Below the pieces are notes generated by a model. It saw nothing but the letters and a program-made list of their open reading frames with translations, ran no database searches and was not told where the DNA came from. Below are positions 8,677 through 52,438 of a DNA stretch of 64,000 nt, one piece after another (within the stretch, counting starts at the first letter, position 1; each line of letters opens with the position of its first letter). A program made the position numbers and the translations under genes. Where the stretch lies: contig CAZPMS010000002.1 of assembly GCA_964588165.1 (NCBI GenBank), forward strand, positions 15,951-79,950. Direction: 5' to 3'. The stretch comes from an uncultured Gammaproteobacteria bacterium. Lineage in GTDB: Bacteria; Patescibacteriota; Patescibacteriia; UBA1558; UBA10009.

Positions 8677-9621
8677 TTAACTTGTCCAGTAATATGCCAT
8701 TATACTAAAATCCACCAGATCAATTTTACCGTCATTATTTAAGTACTCTGCTTCAATTTGGGCAAACTCTTCATTTAAAGGTTTATTGTACCAATAAGCC
8801 ACTATAGAAAAGTCAACTAAGTTAACTTGGCCGTCGTTATTAACATTGCCTCTTATAAACACATTCTCTTCCATTAAAATATTTTCGGTACCCACCTCAA
8901 AACCGATATTATAACTGTAACCGCTGACCATTTGGTTATTTATGGAAGCTCGGGATTTAGTGTTATGGTGCCCATAGTCTAAGATTGATGTATCAAAATT
9001 ACTTAAATAGATGCCATTGGTATCAGAACTGGTGTAGGCAAATTGTTCAATATCTGAATTAACAGCGATAGTAATATCAGCCAAGGGAGTAGTTTGGCCA
9101 AAGATAGCCAGATTATCACCTCTTTTTACTTGGCTTTTATCTATTGTAATGGTAGGAGAAATAAATACTCCGCTAACTGTAGTAATAATGCCTTGGGATA
9201 CAGTTATAGGGTAGGTTAAAATATTAGATCGCCGTTCTTCTTCATCATGGCTATAAAGAGAAAAGATATAGTTGCCAGAAGACAAGCCAGTTACATTTAT
9301 GGAAAAATTGGCGTCTGCTCCGGAAATGGTAGTGGCTATTACTTGGGTATCTTTTAATAGAGTTACTATGCTTTGAGGATAAGCTTTGCCAGTAAATATT
9401 ACACTGGTAGCCGGGGTGTTATAGCCTCCGCCACCGCCTCCTCCGCCACCGCCTCCTCCGCCACCGTTTTCTTCTTCCTCTTCTTCAGGCTCGGCTACTG
9501 TGGCGGAAACATTAACTGTTCCTTGTTCAGCTAAAACATAGTTTTGGGTAAAACCGAAAATAGTTAAAGAGATTACTAATAAAAAAATAGCAATTAATTT
9601 ATTTTTTTTGCTATTCTTCAT
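8677..9621 (-). CDS. Secreted protein with a Glu/Gly-rich linker and two C-terminal dockerin-type repeats.
   Basis: Signal peptide present. EPEEEEEENGGGGGGGGGGGGGG linker. C-terminus NVNNDGQVNLVDFSIVAYWYN...LNNDGKIDLVDFSIMAYYW, which fits the dockerin DxNxDGxIxxxD pattern. Confidence 0.6.
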   Translation of the reverse strand: MKNSKKNKLIAIFLLVISLTIFGFTQNYVLAEQGTVNVSATVAEPEEEEEENGGGGGGGGGGGGGGYNTPATSVIFTGKAYPQSIVTLLKDTQVIATTISGADANFSINVTGLSSGNYIFSLYSHDEEERRSNILTYPITVSQGIITTVSGVFISPTITIDKSQVKRGDNLAIFGQTTPLADITIAVNSDIEQFAYTSSDTNGIYLSNFDTSILDYGHHNTKSRASINNQMVSGYSYNIGFEVGTENILMEENVFIRGNVNNDGQVNLVDFSIVAYWYNKPLNEEFAQIEAEYLNNDGKIDLVDFSIMAYYWTS

Positions 9622-37727: not shown

Positions 37728-37749
37728 ATTTATATTTTGATTTATCGGT

Positions 37750-37782
37750 AGCCCGCCGAATCGGCGGGCTACTTTTGTCTAC
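37750..37782 (+). terminator. Intrinsic terminator after gyrA
   Basis: gtagcccgccgaatcggcgggctac followed by ttttgtc. Confidence 0.7.
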
Positions 37783-41513: not shown

Positions 41514-43490
41514 TTAATTACTAAACCTATTTAGAAATTCTAACATCATGCTACCAAGTGGTTGATAGAAAACATGTTCACCATCTTCCAATTTATAGAA
41601 TTCAGTGGGCACCAAACAACTTTGATGAACCCAATAATCAACACTGGTAACAGGAGAGCTATTAATAAGTGCCTGGACTGATGGAGTGCTAATATCAAGA
41701 TTTTTTTCTACGGACGTGCATTGATGGGCATCGGCGTAATAATTGGAAGCTACTTCTGCTGTAGGCATTTCACCAGGTGCTGGAGATTCTCCTTCGTAAA
41801 GATATATTGAAGTTTGGTCATTAGTGGAATGAAACCGGATAATTGGAATAGCATCTTTTTGGCCGGCAGCTATTGCCGTATCATAAGCCAAGAAATCGCT
41901 ACCTGGTCCGCCACAACCGCCAACGGCCATGGCTATAATATCATTTCTGGTTAAAGCCATATGTTGGGCTTGGGCACAGCCATAAGAAAAGCCGCCAGCA
42001 AAAATTTTATCAATATAAAAGCTGCTTTCTAAATTATTTACTATTATATCTATAAAACTGTCATCATCAGGCATTCTCATTTGGGCATAACAGCCCCTAT
42101 CATCAATCGGTTCTTGCCCTGGGCGGGTATTCCAACAGGTTAAGCCAATTTGAGCATCATTGGTAAAACGATTATCAACCAGTTGGTTATTAGACCGTCC
42201 CATGCCTTGAGGGTAAACAACTATAAAGTTACCTTGCTGGTCAGCAATTTCATCAAATTGATGGCTTAATTGTTGTTGGGCCGTGCCTCCCTTGCCATGA
42301 TACCAGAAAAGAACATCATAATGTAAATTAGGATTAAAGTTTGTTGGTAGGTGAATATAATAAGACCTTTCTACAGTAGTATTGCCTGTAAAATTAGTCA
42401 TTTGGTCGTCAAACTCTATGGTAATAAGGTGGGTACCGGCACTTAAAAGGTTACATTGTCCTTGGTTGCATTCAAAATGTTCTTGGCAGCTTTGAGTTTC
42501 GCCCCATTCCGTACAGCCATCGCCATTATAATCGCCACAGGCTTGATAACCTTCACCAGAGCATTGGGTTTCATTTATACTACATTCATCAAAACATTGT
42601 GGGGGGTCTAAAGTACAGTTGCCATCTTGGCAGCTATATAAACAATTAGATATCTCACCCCATTCCGTACATCCATTACCGTCATAATCGCCACAGGTTT
42701 GATAACCTTCGCCTGAACATTGAGTATCATACAAATTACATTCATTAGTGCAATCAAATCCACCATCTCCCATTGGGTAAGCGATTTCATTTTCTAAAAC
42801 AGTGATAGGCACACCATCAGTATAGATGGAAAGATCAGGAACAACTATAGTGCTACTGAAAAGTCTGTTGGCAATCATGCCAGCATTAGTAACAAGACGT
42901 TTTGTTGAACCTTCAATATAATAGATCTGTGGGCTATGATAACCTTCTTGAACCAGGGTGCCCGTTGGATAGGTAGAAGAACTGGTTAAAGGAGCGCTGG
43001 ATGAATAGTTGGCAGCTAAATAGTTTGGCAATGGAATAATCATGCTTTCCCAGTTGGCACCATATAATAATGCTGCAGTATCTGCTGAATCAATGGCATG
43101 GGTTGCGCCATTGGGGCCGACAGCATAAACTTCCGGAGTGTTAGAAACATTCCAGGTGCCATCGCCTAAAACTTCAACATATTGAATAAGTTTTGTACCT
43201 TGTCTTACAACCACGGTAGAACCCAGGGTATAGCTGACCATTTCATCGGTTGGGACAGTTTTTAAACTATTAAAGTCTGGATACCATGTAACATATTCTC
43301 TCTCATGGTGGAATGGATGTTTAACTAAATTTGAATCCAAATAATAAACTGCCGGAGAGGAATCGGATTTAATTAAATCACCGGCTGTGGCAACATTAGC
43401 TTTAGCTATATTAATGGCAACCATAGTGCCCCAAACAGCAGCAGATGCCACTATTGAGATTAAGAACGATTTTTTTATGAAGTTACTCAT
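41514..43490 (-). CDS. Secreted esterase of the PHB-depolymerase family (alpha/beta hydrolase) with duplicated Cys-rich modules.
   Basis: Signal/anchor present. Two copies of C..EC...(D/E)TQCSGEGYQ(T/A)CGDY(D/N)G(N/D)GCTEWGE. C-terminal FWYHGKGG...GFSYGC (GxSxG). Confidence 0.6.
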   Translation of the reverse strand: MSNFIKKSFLISIVASAAVWGTMVAINIAKANVATAGDLIKSDSSPAVYYLDSNLVKHPFHHEREYVTWYPDFNSLKTVPTDEMVSYTLGSTVVVRQGTKLIQYVEVLGDGTWNVSNTPEVYAVGPNGATHAIDSADTAALLYGANWESMIIPLPNYLAANYSSSAPLTSSSTYPTGTLVQEGYHSPQIYYIEGSTKRLVTNAGMIANRLFSSTIVVPDLSIYTDGVPITVLENEIAYPMGDGGFDCTNECNLYDTQCSGEGYQTCGDYDGNGCTEWGEISNCLYSCQDGNCTLDPPQCFDECSINETQCSGEGYQACGDYNGDGCTEWGETQSCQEHFECNQGQCNLLSAGTHLITIEFDDQMTNFTGNTTVERSYYIHLPTNFNPNLHYDVLFWYHGKGGTAQQQLSHQFDEIADQQGNFIVVYPQGMGRSNNQLVDNRFTNDAQIGLTCWNTRPGQEPIDDRGCYAQMRMPDDDSFIDIIVNNLESSFYIDKIFAGGFSYGCAQAQHMALTRNDIIAMAVGGCGGPGSDFLAYDTAIAAGQKDAIPIIRFHSTNDQTSIYLYEGESPAPGEMPTAEVASNYYADAHQCTSVEKNLDISTPSVQALINSSPVTSVDYWVHQSCLVPTEFYKLEDGEHVFYQPLGSMMLEFLNRFSN

Positions 43491-44631: not shown

Positions 44632-45669
44632 ATGAAGCTTTCAGATTTTGATTACAAATTACCCAAACAGCTTATTGCTCATAAACCGGCCAGCCCGCGT
44701 GATAATTCCAGGCTGATGGTTTTAGATCGCCAATCAAAAAAGATTGAACATAAGCATTTTTTTGATATTGTAGATTATTTAAATAAAGGCGATGTTTTGG
44801 TTTTGAATAATACTAAGGTATTTCCGGCTCGTCTTATCGGCCAGCGTTATAAAACCGGCGGTAAAGTGGAAGTTTTCCTTTTGAAAAAAGTTGGATCGAG
44901 CTCAGCTCGATGGGAAGTGTTAATTGGGAACAGAAGAAAAAAAATTGGTCAAATAATTGAATTTGGCAAAGGTTTGGAATGTGAAATTGTAAAGCAAATT
45001 GATGAATCAGTCTGGCAGGTTAAGTTTAATAAATCGGGCAGTCAACTAGAAAAAGTTATTGATCAAATCGGTGAAGTTCCTACTCCACCTTATATTAAAA
45101 TTAAAGATAAAAAGACTAAAAGATTGAAAGATTTATATCAAACAGTTTATGCAGAGCATCGTGGGTCAGTAGCGGCGCCTACGGCTGGGTTTCATTTTAC
45201 AAAACCTTTAATCAACAAATTAAAAAAGAAGGGCGTTCAATTTGAATATGTTACGCTCCATGTTGGTTTTGGAACTTTTGAAGAAGTTAGAGTGAATAAT
45301 ATTAAAAAGCACAAAATGCATTCAGAATTCGCAAAAATAGACGCAAAGACCACAAAAAATTTAAATAATGCAAAAAAAGAAAGTAGGCGGGTAATATCAG
45401 TCGGCACAACCTCAACCAGAGTTCTTGAAGCTTTTAGTAGTAAAGGAAAAATTAAAGCTCAAAGCAAGTGGGTAGATATTTTTATTTACCCAGGCTATAA
45501 GTTTAAATTTATTGATGGGTTGATAACAAATTTTCATTTGCCCAAATCAAGTTTAATAATGTTAGTAAGTGCTTTAGCTGGTCGTCAACTTATTCTCAAG
45601 GCTTACAAGACTGCTGTCAGTAAAAAGTACCGTTTTTATTCTTTTGGCGACAGTATGTTTATTTTTTAA
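44632..45669 (+). CDS. queA: S-adenosylmethionine:tRNA ribosyltransferase-isomerase QueA. It carries an in-frame family F palindrome at 44895-44913.
   Basis: MKLSDFDYKLPKQLIAHKP...RLMVL. VLNNTKVFPARL. C-terminal TNFHLPKSSL. Confidence 0.85.
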   Translation: MKLSDFDYKLPKQLIAHKPASPRDNSRLMVLDRQSKKIEHKHFFDIVDYLNKGDVLVLNNTKVFPARLIGQRYKTGGKVEVFLLKKVGSSSARWEVLIGNRRKKIGQIIEFGKGLECEIVKQIDESVWQVKFNKSGSQLEKVIDQIGEVPTPPYIKIKDKKTKRLKDLYQTVYAEHRGSVAAPTAGFHFTKPLINKLKKKGVQFEYVTLHVGFGTFEEVRVNNIKKHKMHSEFAKIDAKTTKNLNNAKKESRRVISVGTTSTRVLEAFSSKGKIKAQSKWVDIFIYPGYKFKFIDGLITNFHLPKSSLIMLVSALAGRQLILKAYKTAVSKKYRFYSFGDSMFIF

Positions 45670-45764
45670 GATAACAAAAACCCCGCAATAATGCGAAGGC
45701 TTTTGTTTTTATTTTTATTTCAATTCCGTTGACGTTTTTTAAATGTACATATTAATCGAAAAGT

Positions 45765-45795
45765 GGACCCCGCTGCTCGCGAGCGGCAGGGGTGG
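45765..45795. repeat. Palindrome family A copy 1 (ccccgctgctcgcgagcggcagggg), intergenic.
   Basis: The core gctcgcgagc is perfectly palindromic. Other copies are at 46275-46304 and 47723-47747. Confidence 0.7.
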
Positions 45796-45872
45796 ATAGC
45801 CGATTAACAGTCCCTTTTTATTTAGTCAACGATTTTGATTATTAATTTTTTAAAGTGCTGCAAGTTTTCTTT

Positions 45873-46100
45873 CTATTTGGCCGAATAAAAAGGGTTATCT
45901 TTAAGATAACCGTCATTTATGATTTCACTAATTTGATTTTGATTTATGGTATCAGGCAGAACTGGTAAGTTTTCAGCGGCAACTTTGTTATTTTTTTCAA
46001 AGTTATTTTTTAAAATATTCATTCCGTAAGAAGCTCCGCCAACAATCAGCAGGCAGATAACCAGAGCTAAAACAATATTAATTTCTTTTTTCTTTTTCAT
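45873..46100 (-). CDS. Small secreted or membrane-anchored hypothetical protein
   Basis: 75 aa with an N-terminal signal/TM. Confidence 0.35.
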   Translation of the reverse strand: MKKKKEINIVLALVICLLIVGGASYGMNILKNNFEKNNKVAAENLPVLPDTINQNQISEIINDGYLKDNPFYSAK

Positions 46101-46274
46101 TTTTGTTTTGGAAATTAGACATTAAAAAATGCCTTGAACAAAAACCAAGACATCGCACGAATCAATATTAAATTGGTTTTTGTTTTATTTTGGCCCACCT
46201 TTGCTAAAGCTTCGGCGGATAAATAAGCTATTTTGGCTTACATAAGTAATGATAGCATAAATTTTTAAAAAAGT

Positions 46275-46304
46275 CAACCCAGCTGCTCGCGAGCGGCTGG
46301 GTTG
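46275..46304. repeat. Palindrome family A copy 2 (caacccagctgctcgcgagcggctgggttg).
   Basis: Near-perfect 30-bp palindrome in intergenic DNA. Confidence 0.7.
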
Positions 46305-46688
46305 TTATAAGACGGGGCAAGCTTGTACACACCGTCATACCATACAAAGTGTTGGAATTAATCCAAGTGCTTTGCAGGGTGAAGTCGTTTACCATATGTT
46401 CAAGCAGACCGTTAGCTTGTCTGGAGATTTCAAAATCATTAGCCTGTCTTAGAACATTAAAGAAGTGGCAGCTCCTAGATATTATCACCTCCTATCAGCT
46501 AGTTAGCAGGAAGTAATTCACTTCGGGAGCCTCCTTTGTTAAGTGATCGTTTATTGAGTAGATTAATGGGTAGTCGCGAGGCACCTTCCATTGCCCGTTT
46601 AAGAAATCTACGAAAACCAGAAGAACTTCTACGATTGACACAAATTGAACTTCTGCCGATTGCCATCAAACCTCCATTTGTTAAAAAA

Positions 46689-46712
46689 AAGAGGGATCTA
46701 GCCCCTCCATTT
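46689..46712 (-). terminator. Intrinsic terminator on the minus strand
   Basis: The reverse complement reads gagggGCTAGATccctc followed by tttttttt. Confidence 0.55.
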
Positions 46713-46919
46713 TGTTGTTAAAAGTTCTCTTTATTTAATTATAGAAATTATTCCAATTTTAGGATAGTGGAAAACTAATTAAACAGAAAATAGGCTACAT
46801 CTCCATCTTTTAATTGGTAATTTTTTGTTTTTAATAGATTTTAAACTTTTGTAGTGCTTGACTTTAATCTAATAATAGGTTAATTTAGGTTTATTACGTT
46901 CAATATACAAGGGGGTACC

Positions 46920-47102
46920 ATGATTGGTCCGCATCCTGATGACTATGTCAGATATACGGCGAAAGAGCTTCGAGATGAAGAAAGACTTTGCGAGAGAATA
47001 GTCAGAGGGTATGGCTTTGATGGGCATGGAAGGATTTGGTGGGCATGGAAGGATTTTCAAGCATTTATGTTTAATCTTTTCAGGCTCAAGCGTCTGTTTT
47101 AA
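46920..47102 (+). CDS. Small hypothetical protein (60 aa) with a strong RBS. It contains a tandem 17-bp duplication.
   Basis: aagggggt sits 6 nt upstream of the ATG. The sequence gggcatggaaggattt occurs twice in tandem (47021-47056). Confidence 0.35.
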   Translation: MIGPHPDDYVRYTAKELRDEERLCERIVRGYGFDGHGRIWWAWKDFQAFMFNLFRLKRLF

Positions 47103-47114
47103 GTGGGCGCTTTT

Positions 47115-48215
47115 TTATTTGTTAAATAAAAAGTAAACAGTATCACCGTCTTTTATTGGGTAGTTTTTACCTTCAGTTTTAATTAGGCCCTGTTCTTTAG
47201 CTTGAATTTCTCCGCCAGCTTCAATTAAACTTTGCCAATTTACAATTTCGGCTCTAATAAAGCCCTGTTCAAAATCGGTATGGATAACTCCGGCTGCCTG
47301 CGGTGCCTGCGTGCCACTTTCAACAGTCCAGGCATGGGCTTCTTTTGGGCCGGCAGTGAAGAAGGTTATGAGATTTAAAAGATTGTAAGATTGTAAGATT
47401 AATTTATCTAAACCACTTTGGCTTATGCCGAGTGTTTCTAAATATTGTTTAGCCTCAACGGCTGGCATAGAGGCCAGTTCAGATTCTAACTTGGCAGATA
47501 TGGTTAAGTAAGGTTTTTTATAATGATCCTTGGATTTAGTTAGTTCATTTTCAGAAACATTATAAACATAAAGGATTGGTTTATAAGTTAGAAGATTTAA
47601 TTCTTTAATAAATTTAATATCTTCATCAGCTACTTCTAAATTAATAGCAAATTTTTCTTCTTCCAGAATCTTTTTTAAGTTTTTTAAAATTTCAATGTTT
47701 TTTAAAAGAATTTTGTCTTTTGACCCAGCTGCTCGCGAGCGGCTGGGAGAACCTTTAGCTTGCTTGGTTAGTTTTTCTAAAAGACCATTAACCGTTTCTA
47801 AGTCGGCCAGGATTAATTCTAAATTAATAGTTTTTACATCATCTTCCGGATCAATTTTGCCGTTTACATGAATTATATCGTCATTAGCAAAATCTCTAAC
47901 CACCTCAGCAATCGCATCAACCTCTCTTATATGAGAAAGGAATTTATTGCCTAAGCCTTCACCATCGGCTGCGCCCTTTACTAGGCCTGCAATATCTACA
48001 AATTCAATAGCGGTTGGTACTACTTTGGGAGAATTATAAAGCTGGGCAAGCTTGTCTAACCTATTATCAGGAACGGCCACCACACCTACATTAGGCTCAA
48101 TAGTGCAAAATGGATAATTAGAAGCATCCACCTGATTTTTAGTTAGGGCAGTAAATAAAGTTGATTTGCCTACATTAGGCAAGCCCACAATGCCGATTGA
48201 AAAACTCATAAACAA
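47115..48215 (-). CDS. ychF: Ribosome-binding ATPase YchF (Obg-like). It carries an in-frame family A palindrome insertion (SPSRSRAAGS).
   Basis: GIVGLPNVGKSTLF. TGS domain. C-terminal ...LNLITFFTAGPKEAHAWT. Confidence 0.85.
   Translation of the reverse strand: MFMSFSIGIVGLPNVGKSTLFTALTKNQVDASNYPFCTIEPNVGVVAVPDNRLDKLAQLYNSPKVVPTAIEFVDIAGLVKGAADGEGLGNKFLSHIREVDAIAEVVRDFANDDIIHVNGKIDPEDDVKTINLELILADLETVNGLLEKLTKQAKGSPSRSRAAGSKDKILLKNIEILKNLKKILEEEKFAINLEVADEDIKFIKELNLLTYKPILYVYNVSENELTKSKDHYKKPYLTISAKLESELASMPAVEAKQYLETLGISQSGLDKLILQSYNLLNLITFFTAGPKEAHAWTVESGTQAPQAAGVIHTDFEQGFIRAEIVNWQSLIEAGGEIQAKEQGLIKTEGKNYPIKDGDTVYFLFNK
47723..47747. repeat. Palindrome family A copy 3, inside the ychF coding sequence and in frame.
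   Basis: acccagctgctcgcgagcggctggg. Confidence 0.7.
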
Positions 48216-48354
48216 AAGTGTAGTTCATTTTTACCTTTTTGGCAACAATTGATTTGTTAGATGATTTTCATATGAATCAGCTTTTAATACTAATTGTTAC
48301 TTTTTTATAAAAATACCGTCTTTATTTTTCAACAAAGACGGTATTATAGCTGAT

Positions 48355-52358: not shown

Positions 52359-52438
52359 TACGCCCGCCCGCCATGGCTCCGCCGAAGGCGAGTCGGGCGG
52401 GGAGCAGATAATTTATGAAGTTTCAATCAGGGATTAAT

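Follow-up and report, generated by a model that had tools for sequence, protein, structure and literature searches.

Hairpin repeats that go together with Ssn-type nucleases are a recent discovery, first reported in 2025 (Ssn nucleases with NTS and SRM hairpin repeats; Chenal et al., Nat Commun 2025, PMC11893778). The SRM is an inverted repeat, 20-50 nt long, that is present in multiple copies, can fold into a hairpin and is sought with the sequence HGTCWYN(0-2)YYVSBRHN(0-5)WNVSBRGN(0-2)RNCYNB, and the partner gene, which the hairpin adjoins, encodes a single-domain GIY-YIG protein of ~90 aa (PMC11893778). Ssn-type single-domain GIY-YIG nucleases were shown to bind such hairpins; the enzyme cuts single-stranded DNA (ssDNA) only, near the hairpin and on one strand only, and recognition between SsnA and the NTS is strictly strand-directional (PMC11893778). 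The N. meningitidis repeats are mostly intergenic, with 2% in genes, and Chenal et al. proposed, as speculation only, that Ssn units are IS-like; REP/RAYT and IS200/IS605 are discussed in the same paper as ssDNA-hairpin elements (PMC11893778).

Here we describe a GC-rich hairpin from a 64,000-nt stretch of Patescibacteria DNA (the window, by which we mean this whole stretch), in which three copies lie within 2 kb, as the initial annotation had recognized (Table 1). All three copies have the same orientation and share the 24-mer consensus CCC[A/C]GCTGCTCGCGAGCGGC[T/A]GGG. The window holds exactly three instances of the core GCTCGCGAGC, where 0.42 would be expected, and the 20-mer CAGCTGCTCGCGAGCGGCTG, with up to three mismatches allowed, finds only these three sites against 0.00 expected from 100 shuffles. 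The element had been called a perfect palindrome, but only its 10-nt core is perfect: in every copy T at position 7 stands opposite G at position 18, and a second mismatch, C4/A21, is present in copy 1. It is GC-rich as claimed, although the figures of about 75% in a 35% GC genome become 79% (19/24) in a window of 36.7% GC. Neither a further copy nor a half-site was found in the remaining 62 kb of the window and ~16 kb of flanking sequence, and the probability of three copies falling within 2 kb of ~80 kb under uniform placement, calculated post hoc, is ~0.002. No T-run lies 3' of any copy, so the three hairpins are not intrinsic terminators; a terminator scan of positions 45500-48300 returned 11 terminator-like sites, none of which is one of the three. 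A second strong GC-rich hairpin (37748-37772) proved to be an ordinary gyrA terminator outside this family.

Table 1. Features of the hairpin-bearing region (window coordinates)
Feature	Position	Strand	Description
Hairpin copy 1	45768-45791	+	CCCCGCTGCTCGCGAGCGGCAGGG; intergenic, with queA on one side and the 75-aa gene on the other
75-aa predicted membrane protein gene	45873-46100	-	Bracketed by copies 1 and 2 (hairpin-gene-hairpin)
Hairpin copy 2	46278-46301	+	CCCAGCTGCTCGCGAGCGGCTGGG; intergenic
Gene-poor gap	46302-47114		~800 nt, from copy 2 to ychF; convincing gene absent
ychF	47115-48209	-	364 aa; MMR_HSR1 and YchF-GTPase_C; reading frame intact
Hairpin copy 3	47724-47747 (47721-47750 with duplication)	+	CCCAGCTGCTCGCGAGCGGCTGGG; inside ychF

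The surroundings of the three copies differ. Copy 1 is flanked by a 5-nt direct repeat, GTGGA (45763-45767 and 45792-45796), and the empty site restored by removing it falls within the loop of a TTAATCG..CGATTAA stem. At copy 2 the palindrome reaches out to CAA..TTG (46275-46304), and it has no flanking direct repeat. A relative in Komeilibacteria carries an ortholog (p67) of the gene bracketed by copies 1 and 2 at the corresponding position. In the gap before ychF an ORF of 60 aa was called (46920-47102), and searches of the gap with Pfam (small ORFs) and Rfam gave zero matches. The position of this gap is occupied in a relative by 5 kb holding a sigma-70 gene and two large genes; remnants of the relative's sigma-70, 430-aa and 748-aa genes were sought in the gap and were absent. 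Rfam at its gathering threshold found tRNA-Glu alone in the whole window, and at E <= 1 it returned sub-threshold noise across 45650-47150.

Copy 3 offers a clean natural case of a repeat that sits in frame within a conserved GTPase, of the essential type, without breaking the gene. The in-frame character of the insert was correctly noted at the outset, while its length comes to 9 aa rather than 10 when measured against the closest orthologs: a net 27 nt (the 24-mer and one duplicated TCN) has been inserted and codes SPSRSRAAG with a Ser codon on either side, the duplication being an imperfect 3-nt TGA/AGA (coding strand TCA/TCT). The codons read GGT TCT [24-mer] TCA AAA GAC in the window, and GGC TCA GCC GAT and AGT ACA AAG GAT in relatives; the T..G strand of the hairpin is antisense to ychF, and the 24-mer holds no stop codon in any frame. 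Of 24 YchF orthologs just two carry the insert, the window protein and its 99% twin, and the comparison with relatives that had been recommended shows that every ortholog at or below 78% identity lacks it. The segment, whose conservation in distant orthologs had been named as evidence against the initial proposal, is evidently a lineage-specific insertion. It occupies residues ~153-161, between helices 121-152 and 163-183, and AlphaFold places it in a surface loop (residues 153-162, pLDDT <50) where the coiled coil has its tip. Identical insert-bearing YchF is found on nine contigs from independent JGI and Logan assemblies, and an ENA protein (P0001) 99% identical to the window YchF also carries the insert; since it recurs in independent JGI, Logan and ENA data, the ychF insert is not an assembly artefact.

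Beyond the window, a search for exact matches to the 24-base pattern (22 specified bases) found it in 98 metagenome stretches. The identical 24-mer occurs in ~90 distinct, unrelated low-GC loci from many metagenomes and from several Patescibacteria MAGs, two of which are assigned to Falkowbacteria and Collierbacteria. Absence of the motif elsewhere, which the initial annotation had taken as a possible counter-argument, is seen in the rest of the ~80 kb, yet the motif is abundant in other genomes. Abutting direct repeats of at least 3 nt (range 3-5) flank 38 of 90 unique instances, against ~5.3 expected from shuffled flank pairing; the duplicated sequences are diverse, and about half of the instances have no direct repeat. 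Targets commonly read T(C/G)(C/A/G)A, with the tetranucleotides TCCA/TCAA preferred, and commonly are tRNA loops. A location in the middle of an ORF was seen in 1-2 of 94 unique instances, the ychF copy being the clear case. We also considered pre-existing hairpin loops as targets and set this idea aside: targets fall in predicted loops in 47% versus 32% of cases (p = 0.004), a weak support, and MFE does not differ. Scans of viral contigs for the T..G form and for both perfect-palindrome forms gave zero matches, so that the hairpin is not evidently phage-borne, and a literature search for the 24-mer sequence found no relevant paper. Taken as an outline, the first suggestion of local spread or a recombination/binding site holds up: the element is a dispersed, insertion-competent repeat with target-site duplications, tied in other genomes to a small GIY-YIG gene of the Ssn type. 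The restriction-modification target suggested along with it has no evidence pointing there.

Variation among the copies speaks to the structure of the element. At the variable positions 4 and 21, 36 instances have an A-T pair, 44 a C-G pair and one a T-A pair, only nine being unpaired, and compensatory variants such as GCCCCTCGCGAGGGGC and GTTCGCGAAC occur; pairing in the hairpin has been kept through compensatory changes. Predicted DNA folds range from -10 to -14 kcal/mol, with z-scores to -6.2, and on ssDNA the 24-bp element is predicted to form a hairpin whose stem has 10-13 pairs and whose loop is CGCG. The T..G strand folds ~2 kcal/mol more stably than its complement, and the apparent universality of the T/G asymmetry is in part imposed, because the scans required that asymmetry.

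The neighbors of the dispersed copies point to a partner. At ~30 of ~110 loci an ORF that matches GIY-YIG (PF01541 in Pfam, with E between 1e-13 and 1e-14) is found 0-260 nt from the hairpin, and when neighbors within 1.5 kb of the hairpins are clustered, GIY-YIG is the only large and recurrent family (26 loci, with rpmG next at 8) beside the usual tRNA-Trp neighbors. For the ~81-aa protein PF01541 is the sole significant Pfam match, and an NCBIfam search matched no family. The protein is represented in >1100 database clusters, the named ones from Patescibacteria lineages, and is 40% identical to GIY-YIG proteins, 94 aa long, from Shinella and S. meliloti (pairwise E = 9e-14; tblastn 9e-6), with lower scores against the UPF0213 structures 1zg2 and 1ywl (29 and 24 bits). 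The SRM pattern gave four matches, on both sides of the Shinella GIY-YIG gene, which served as a positive control, and one match upstream of the S. meliloti gene; it gave none in the window (0.08 expected) and none in 102 hairpin contexts. Judged by these similarities, the ~81-aa proteins are probably a widespread Patescibacteria family of GIY-YIG nucleases with the Ssn ssDNA nucleases as relatives.

Where hairpin and nuclease gene occur together, the layout is fixed: the gene, encoding a single GIY-YIG domain, stands directly upstream of an intact tRNA-Trp, and the hairpin lies 13-19 nt before the GIY-YIG ATG or just 3' of the tRNA-Trp, where it sits among the fragments of a second tRNA-Trp that is disrupted. 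The same locus holds its own empty-site control, with the intact tRNA-Trp reading GGTCTCCAAAACC and the disrupted copy reading GGTCTCCA, the 24-mer and TCCAAAACC. At a single target, the tRNA-Trp anticodon loop, the hairpin is found in both orientations, which fits poorly with the strand-directional recognition described for SsnA and the NTS. The window and ~16 kb of flanks contain no GIY-YIG gene, intact or degenerate, by tblastn and by profile search (best profile E = 2.1); a candidate degenerate GIY-YIG between copy 2 and ychF (46872-46952, tblastn E = 1.8) gained no support from a 120-sequence profile and was rejected.

We consider it probable, on these sequence comparisons, that the window copies are orphans of a new mobile hairpin family whose partners are the ~81-aa Ssn-related GIY-YIG nucleases. 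Like SsnA with the NTS, the nuclease would recognize the hairpin that folds from ssDNA, and its action at or near the hairpin may drive the copying of hairpins to new sites. Local hopping, or the import of a hairpin-bracketed segment, could have brought the three insertions together within 2 kb, and the ychF copy may have survived because 24 + 3 nt preserve the frame, bring no stop codon and fall in a disordered loop at the coiled-coil tip. GIY-YIG enzymes hydrolyse and do not religate, and we know of no strand-transfer activity among GIY-YIG nucleases, so that pasting driven by the nuclease would be without precedent. The published SRM pattern overlooks this hairpin family, which is found in very small Patescibacteria genomes, and the evidence for its insertion comes directly from filled and empty sites and 3-5-bp duplications. 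Should the nuclease indeed mobilize the hairpin, the mechanism of transposition would have no known parallel, and the compact hairpin/enzyme pair might be of use as an ssDNA tool.

A bolder version of this reading, which we regard as possible though doubtful, is that the hairpin and the ~81-aa GIY-YIG gene form an undescribed cassette that targets tRNA-Trp, disrupting the resident copy and bringing a replacement tRNA-Trp, and that the 24-bp palindrome also transposes alone, with 3-5-bp duplications and without a DDE, HUH, serine or tyrosine recombinase. If true, it would amount to a new transposition route in which a hydrolytic nuclease acting on ssDNA hairpins is combined with host repair.

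Unlikely, in our estimate, is an arrangement in which the mobile unit is the whole hairpin-GIY-YIG-tRNA cassette, the hairpin never moves alone, and solo 24-mers and their duplications are left behind by recombination between terminal hairpins, as with solo LTRs. Hairpins do occur on either side of the ORF-tRNA module, and the loci include cassettes bracketed by hairpins (L180) and tandem copies upstream (L145). The interval between ychF and queA is rearranged and gene-poor in comparison with a relative, and in a strain variant (contig L229, 99.8% identical) homology stops exactly at 46277, the edge of copy 2. However, this course of events needs a cassette of ~400-600 bp to have entered ychF and then been removed precisely to leave 27 nt in frame, traces of the GIY-YIG ORF or of a tRNA fragment are absent beside all three window copies, and ~70% of solo hairpins have no cassette within several kb.

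It is improbable that the host has recruited the palindrome, near ychF and the 75-aa gene, as a site for a dimeric regulator or as a structural or processing signal such as an operator, a terminator or an RNA-processing hairpin. The 75-aa gene has a candidate promoter with a good -35/-10 match directly beside copy 2, its -35-like TTGACT lying 5' of the gene at 46272-46277 on the minus strand, and both the hairpin-gene-hairpin arrangement and the conserved pairing would suit such a role. Against it, an identical 24-mer is found in ~90 unrelated contexts with target duplications and also inside tRNA genes, which its insertion would inactivate; one copy lies within an ORF and antisense to it, and an Rfam match is absent.

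Even less can be said for mobilization by a transposase of the HUH or DDE type whose gene lies elsewhere, with GIY-YIG incidental. REP/RAYT and IS200/IS605 systems use HUH Y1 transposases that act on ssDNA hairpins and insert without target duplication, and REP elements carry a GTAG head. The present hairpin resembles them as a short imperfect palindrome with a tetranucleotide target preference (TCCA/TCAA) whose orphans far outnumber the enzyme gene, but clustering of the neighbors within 1.5 kb of the hairpins shows no HUH family, the hairpins have no GTAG head, and 3-5-nt direct repeats accompany them in 38 of the 90 instances. With inverted arms of 12 nt that could serve as terminal inverted repeats and with duplications of 3-5 bp typical of DDE transposition, it is also MITE-like, and an IS30-like gene stands at the edge of copy 2 in one strain (L229). 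Yet the visible end of that gene lacks the hairpin arm sequence, no transposase family recurs near the hairpins, and the hairpin neighbors include no parent IS with the same ends and a transposase; moreover, 24 bp is, to our knowledge, far below the size of any described MITE. An assembly or sequencing artefact, adapter or chimera, as a short GC-rich palindrome within AT-rich metagenome assemblies might suggest, can be dismissed as next to impossible, as the same insertions appear in the independent assemblies, the ychF reading frame is preserved, target duplications and compensatory variants exist, and the sequence was not found in the literature.

Several other systems share single features with the candidate hairpin family. 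Rickettsia palindromic elements (RPE), of ~100-150 bp, lie in frame in genes of a reduced, AT-rich genome, and the ychF hairpin likewise adds a peptide to a surface region in frame; it differs in being 24 bp long, of unrelated sequence and only rarely inserted in frame (1-2 of 94), and we know of no nuclease gene associated with RPE. The GC clusters of yeast mitochondria, for which short target duplications are reported, and the PstI palindromes that flank tRNA genes in Neurospora mitochondria are short GC-rich elements of very AT-rich genomes, often beside tRNA genes. The hairpin matches them in being short, GC-rich, set in AT-rich DNA and near tRNA genes, but they are organellar and unrelated in sequence, with no dedicated small GIY-YIG partner. 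Phage T4 SegB is a free-standing GIY-YIG homing endonuclease in a tRNA gene cluster and so presents a comparable small GIY-YIG gene among tRNA genes whose spread is tied to the tRNA locus. Seg enzymes, however, have a DNA-binding domain, cut dsDNA and go with no hairpin repeat, whereas the ~81-aa proteins consist of the catalytic domain only, and no copy was found in the viral contigs scanned.

The closest likeness remains that to Ssn/SRM. The window-type hairpin is multi-copy, GC-rich and clustered around genes but rarely inside them; its putative partner, at the loci outside the window where the two occur together, is a single-domain GIY-YIG protein in the ~80-95 aa range with the hairpin on one or both sides of the gene; and the rhizobial proteins with which the Patescibacteria protein shares 40% identity have SRM-flanked genes. 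There are also differences. The Patescibacteria hairpin fails the SRM pattern, has a longer and nearly loop-free stem and lacks the fixed 5' CGTCA head; it shows target-site duplications and filled/empty pairs, features not reported for NTS/SRM, and it is found in both orientations at one target. The hosts are Patescibacteria, and the window hairpins have no nuclease gene nearby. Elsewhere, unlike in Ssn/SRM, an intact tRNA-Trp and a disrupted tRNA copy accompany the nuclease gene, and this fixed module of nuclease and tRNA-Trp within a disrupted tRNA would be an addition to the Ssn-type systems.

The element belongs to a new hairpin family that is demonstrably capable of insertion and is part of a putatively Ssn-type nuclease/hairpin system in Patescibacteria. 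The window carries three orphan copies, and the one in ychF is a rare case of in-frame insertion. Consistent with the three copies described in the initial annotation, the window contains three instances of the 10-nt core GCTCGCGAGC (0.42 expected), and a 20-mer search allowing up to three mismatches returned three sites only (0.00 expected). The copies have the 24-mer CCC[A/C]GCTGCTCGCGAGCGGC[T/A]GGG in common, in identical orientation, and no extra copies or half-sites were found in the remaining 62 kb of the window or in ~16 kb of flanking sequence taken from this contig or one nearly identical to it. What was first described as a perfect palindrome is imperfect, with T at position 7 opposite G at position 18 in each copy and a second mismatch in copy 1. 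Folded as ssDNA, the strand carrying this mismatch forms a stem of 10–13 pairs with a CGCG loop (−9.6, −14.3, and −10.5 kcal/mol across the three copies), and the complementary strand folds ~2 kcal/mol more weakly. Copy 1 is bounded on either side by GTGGA; copy 2 has no direct repeat, and its palindrome is 3 bp longer.

Hairpin copies and other features of the window
Feature	Position (nt)	Remark
58-nt repeat, first copy	599–656
58-nt repeat, second copy	2446–2503
GC-rich low-complexity run	9422–9468
Internal repeat, 645-aa gene	42499–42589, 42655–42745	91 nt each
Hairpin copy 1, 24-mer	45768–45791
Hairpin copy 2, 24-mer	46278–46301
~800-nt gap	46302–47114	only a called 60-aa ORF (46920–47102)
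Hairpin copy 3, 24-mer	47724–47747	in ychF
Length polymorphism versus L003	48856–48893
Third GC-rich island	52361–52402

In a scan with each species represented by one genome, GC-rich genomes gave many chance matches, while in low-GC DNA clear copies were found in several Patescibacteria MAGs, including ones assigned to Falkowbacteria and Collierbacteria; two of the Patescibacteria MAGs carry the hairpin on multiple contigs, and a few MAGs with other labels also have it. Contigs L042, L045, L079, and L109, from MAGs labeled uncultured Gammaproteobacteria (39–49% GC), also have copies, accompanied in L109 by a GIY-YIG gene and tRNA-Trp, meaning either that the family extends past Patescibacteria or that these contigs are mis-binned. 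A more stringent pattern, with 22 bases specified, matched 98 metagenome stretches, which we take to be true copies since the estimated expectation under uniform composition is far below 1, and ~90 distinct low-GC contexts were left once duplicates were dropped. These sequences show selection for hairpin pairing: the two free positions of the 24-mer co-vary (C-G 44, A-T 36, T-A 1, unpaired 9), and diverged copies in the fetched loci retain pairing by double changes (e.g. GCCCCTCGCGAGGGGC and GTTCGCGAAC). The T/C difference between the arms is partly imposed by the search pattern, and perfect-palindrome variants exist.

The hairpin inserts with target duplication. Direct repeats of 3–5 nt abut it in 38 of 90 contexts, versus ~5.3 expected from shuffling the right flanks between instances, and because their sequences are diverse (TCCA, TCAA, TGGA, CCAG, CAAG, CCTG, ATA, and others), they represent target duplications rather than a constant flank. 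Four loci (L208, L188, L145, and L180) provide a built-in empty-site control, in that the anticodon loop of an intact tRNA-Trp reads GGTCTCCAAAACC and a second, truncated tRNA-Trp nearby reads GGTCTCCA[24-mer]TCCAAAACC. The 24-mer is further located in a tRNA D-loop, at tRNA 3′ CCA ends, and at the apex of pre-existing palindromes, and it occurs in both orientations at one and the same target. Targets in predicted hairpin loops show a modest, weak enrichment (47% vs 32%, p = 0.004).

In other genomes, the hairpin is tightly linked to a nuclease gene of apparent Ssn type. Between the hairpin and an intact tRNA-Trp lies an ORF of 79–85 aa that consists of the GIY-YIG catalytic domain alone (PF01541, E = 6e-13 and 2e-14). 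An iterative search of all ORFs of hairpin-bearing loci placed a GIY-YIG gene 0–260 nt from the hairpin in ~30 loci, and clustering of ORFs within 1.5 kb of hairpins returned GIY-YIG in 26 loci, followed by ribosomal protein L33 (8 loci), the gene for which is the usual neighbor of tRNA-Trp. The cassette layout is fixed, with the ORF followed by a same-strand intact tRNA-Trp(CCA) at −9 to +20 nt, and the hairpin either ending 13–19 nt upstream of the ATG or lying just past the tRNA; L180 has a hairpin on either side, and tRNA-Arg or tRNA-Met replaces tRNA-Trp in single cases. More than 1100 database clusters hold the ~81-aa GIY-YIG protein, the named ones coming from Patescibacteria lineages. 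At L208, L188, L145, L180, L132, L139, L144, L123, and ~15 more loci, the module sits within fragments of a second, disrupted tRNA-Trp, which in L188 differs from the intact copy in sequence. The cassette looks to be swapping out a resident tRNA, and the interest of the family lies chiefly in what these loci suggest on mobility.

No GIY-YIG gene was found in the window or its flanks, which makes the three copies orphans, at least in this neighborhood. The main rival explanation is that such solo hairpins are what recombination left of whole cassettes; our preferred reading is that of an insertion-competent hairpin family. Copies 1 and 2 bracket a gene for a predicted 75-aa membrane protein, and copies 2 and 3 bracket a gene-poor 800-nt stretch and the 3′ two-thirds of ychF. 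In the Komeilibacteria relative GCA_001818475.1, the gene order ychF … p67 (the ortholog of the 75-aa gene) … queA is conserved; the place of copy 1 is taken by a 169-aa gene, and that of copy 2 plus the gap by 5 kb of genes. In L229, a strain contig 99.8% identical, homology to the window ends exactly at 46277, the edge of hairpin 2, where an IS30-like (HTH_38) 310-aa gene begins (L229 1–1145), and the contig ends inside that insertion. Given the relative's gene content and this breakpoint, the ychF–queA interval is a rearrangement hot spot with hairpins at its joints. The initial proposal of local spread or a recombination/binding site was partly right: the family is insertion-competent, and the hot-spot data fit either local hopping or a hairpin role in recombination. 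Outside the called ORF, the gap gave no signal from Pfam, Rfam, or homologs; the relative's equivalent contains a sigma-70 gene and two large genes. An assembly artefact is ruled out, as the hairpin-bearing sequence was recovered independently in assemblies from JGI, ENA, and Logan, with the 165-kb JGI contig Ga0118721_1000025 containing the window.

The window YchF is closest to Candidatus Komeilibacteria/Patescibacteria proteins. Among 24 aligned orthologs, only it and a 99% twin have nine additional residues, and orthologs at ≤78% identity are without them. The window codons AAA GGT TCT [CCC AGC CGC TCG CGA GCA GCT GGG] TCA AAA GAC correspond to AAG GGC TCA GCC GAT or AAA AGT ACA AAG GAT in relatives, so the insertion adds 27 nt, made up of the 24-mer and a second Ser codon arising by duplication (TCT/TCA). 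In an AlphaFold model (pTM 0.75), residues 153–162 form a loop (pLDDT <50) between long helices 121–152 and 163–183, the tip of the YchF coiled coil. Direct reading of the 24-mer found no stop codon across six frames, unsurprising because it is 79% GC. Only 1–2 of 94 instances lie mid-ORF, making the ychF copy atypical of the family. Other Patescibacteria YchF orthologs (P0042 of L239, P0083 of L240, and P0066 in the ortholog alignment A1) have different GC-rich in-frame inserts elsewhere in the protein, such as SPRLPGGKAGGTAG and PASPPASPNRGESQS, and the P0042 insert DNA has a stable fold (−38 kcal/mol across 78 nt), which suggests that entry of GC-rich repeats into ychF is a recurrent event.

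The window also holds a second GC-rich repeat family, TTAATGATTGCCGCGCCCCGCTTG[T/C]GAAGCGAAGCGGAGTCGGGCCGGGGAT[A/G]ATTAA, seen in this organism only among the loci compared. Its two 58-nt copies bracket rnc and nusB/NUDIX genes, the second with a 13-nt direct repeat ATGATTAATGATT on its flanks, and a related third island between a translin-like gene and uvrD has GAGTCGGGC in common. Upstream of ychF, a 292-aa hypothetical gene contains a ~36-bp length polymorphism between strains, with the gene call split in variant L003; a 645-aa hypothetical gene has an internal repeat (82% identical, 156 nt apart), and a low-complexity run is made of GCCTCCGCCACC-type units against a 36.7% GC background.

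Single-domain GIY-YIG proteins of ~94 aa (Ssn, CDD cd10448) are site-specific, ssDNA-only nucleases whose binding site is a hairpin repeat, termed NTS in Neisseria and SRM (Ssn-related motif) generally; they cut a single strand just upstream of it (Chenal et al. 2025, PMC11893778). The repeats usually flank ssn genes and gather round genes, seldom within them (2%), and NTS-ssnA-NTS was called IS-like by the authors, with mobility not demonstrated there (PMC11893778). On rhizobial replicons, the Patescibacteria protein matches GIY-YIG genes of 94 aa (tblastn E = 9e-6; pairwise, 40% identity and E = 9e-14); its matches to the UPF0213 structures 1zg2 and 1ywl score lower. The Shinella gene has CGTCATCCTCGGGCTTGACCCGAGGATCCAT on both flanks, matching the published SRM pattern four times, and the S. 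meliloti gene has one match, upstream. Homology to these SRM-flanked proteins, together with architecture, points to a nuclease of Ssn type. By analogy with Ssn biochemistry, it would recognize the hairpin once folded on ssDNA, while DNA is being replicated or taken up, and cut beside it. At a few loci, L209 (1553–1576) and L215 (5667–5690) being examples, the 24-mer occupies the loop of an SRM-like hairpin (CGTCATTCTGGAGCGAA..GAATC) beside a GIY-YIG gene of 94 aa, one hairpin family thus having inserted into another; the distance in L209 is 24 nt, with the nested hairpin downstream of the gene. The 24-mer itself fails the published SRM pattern (0 of 102 contexts, and none in the window).
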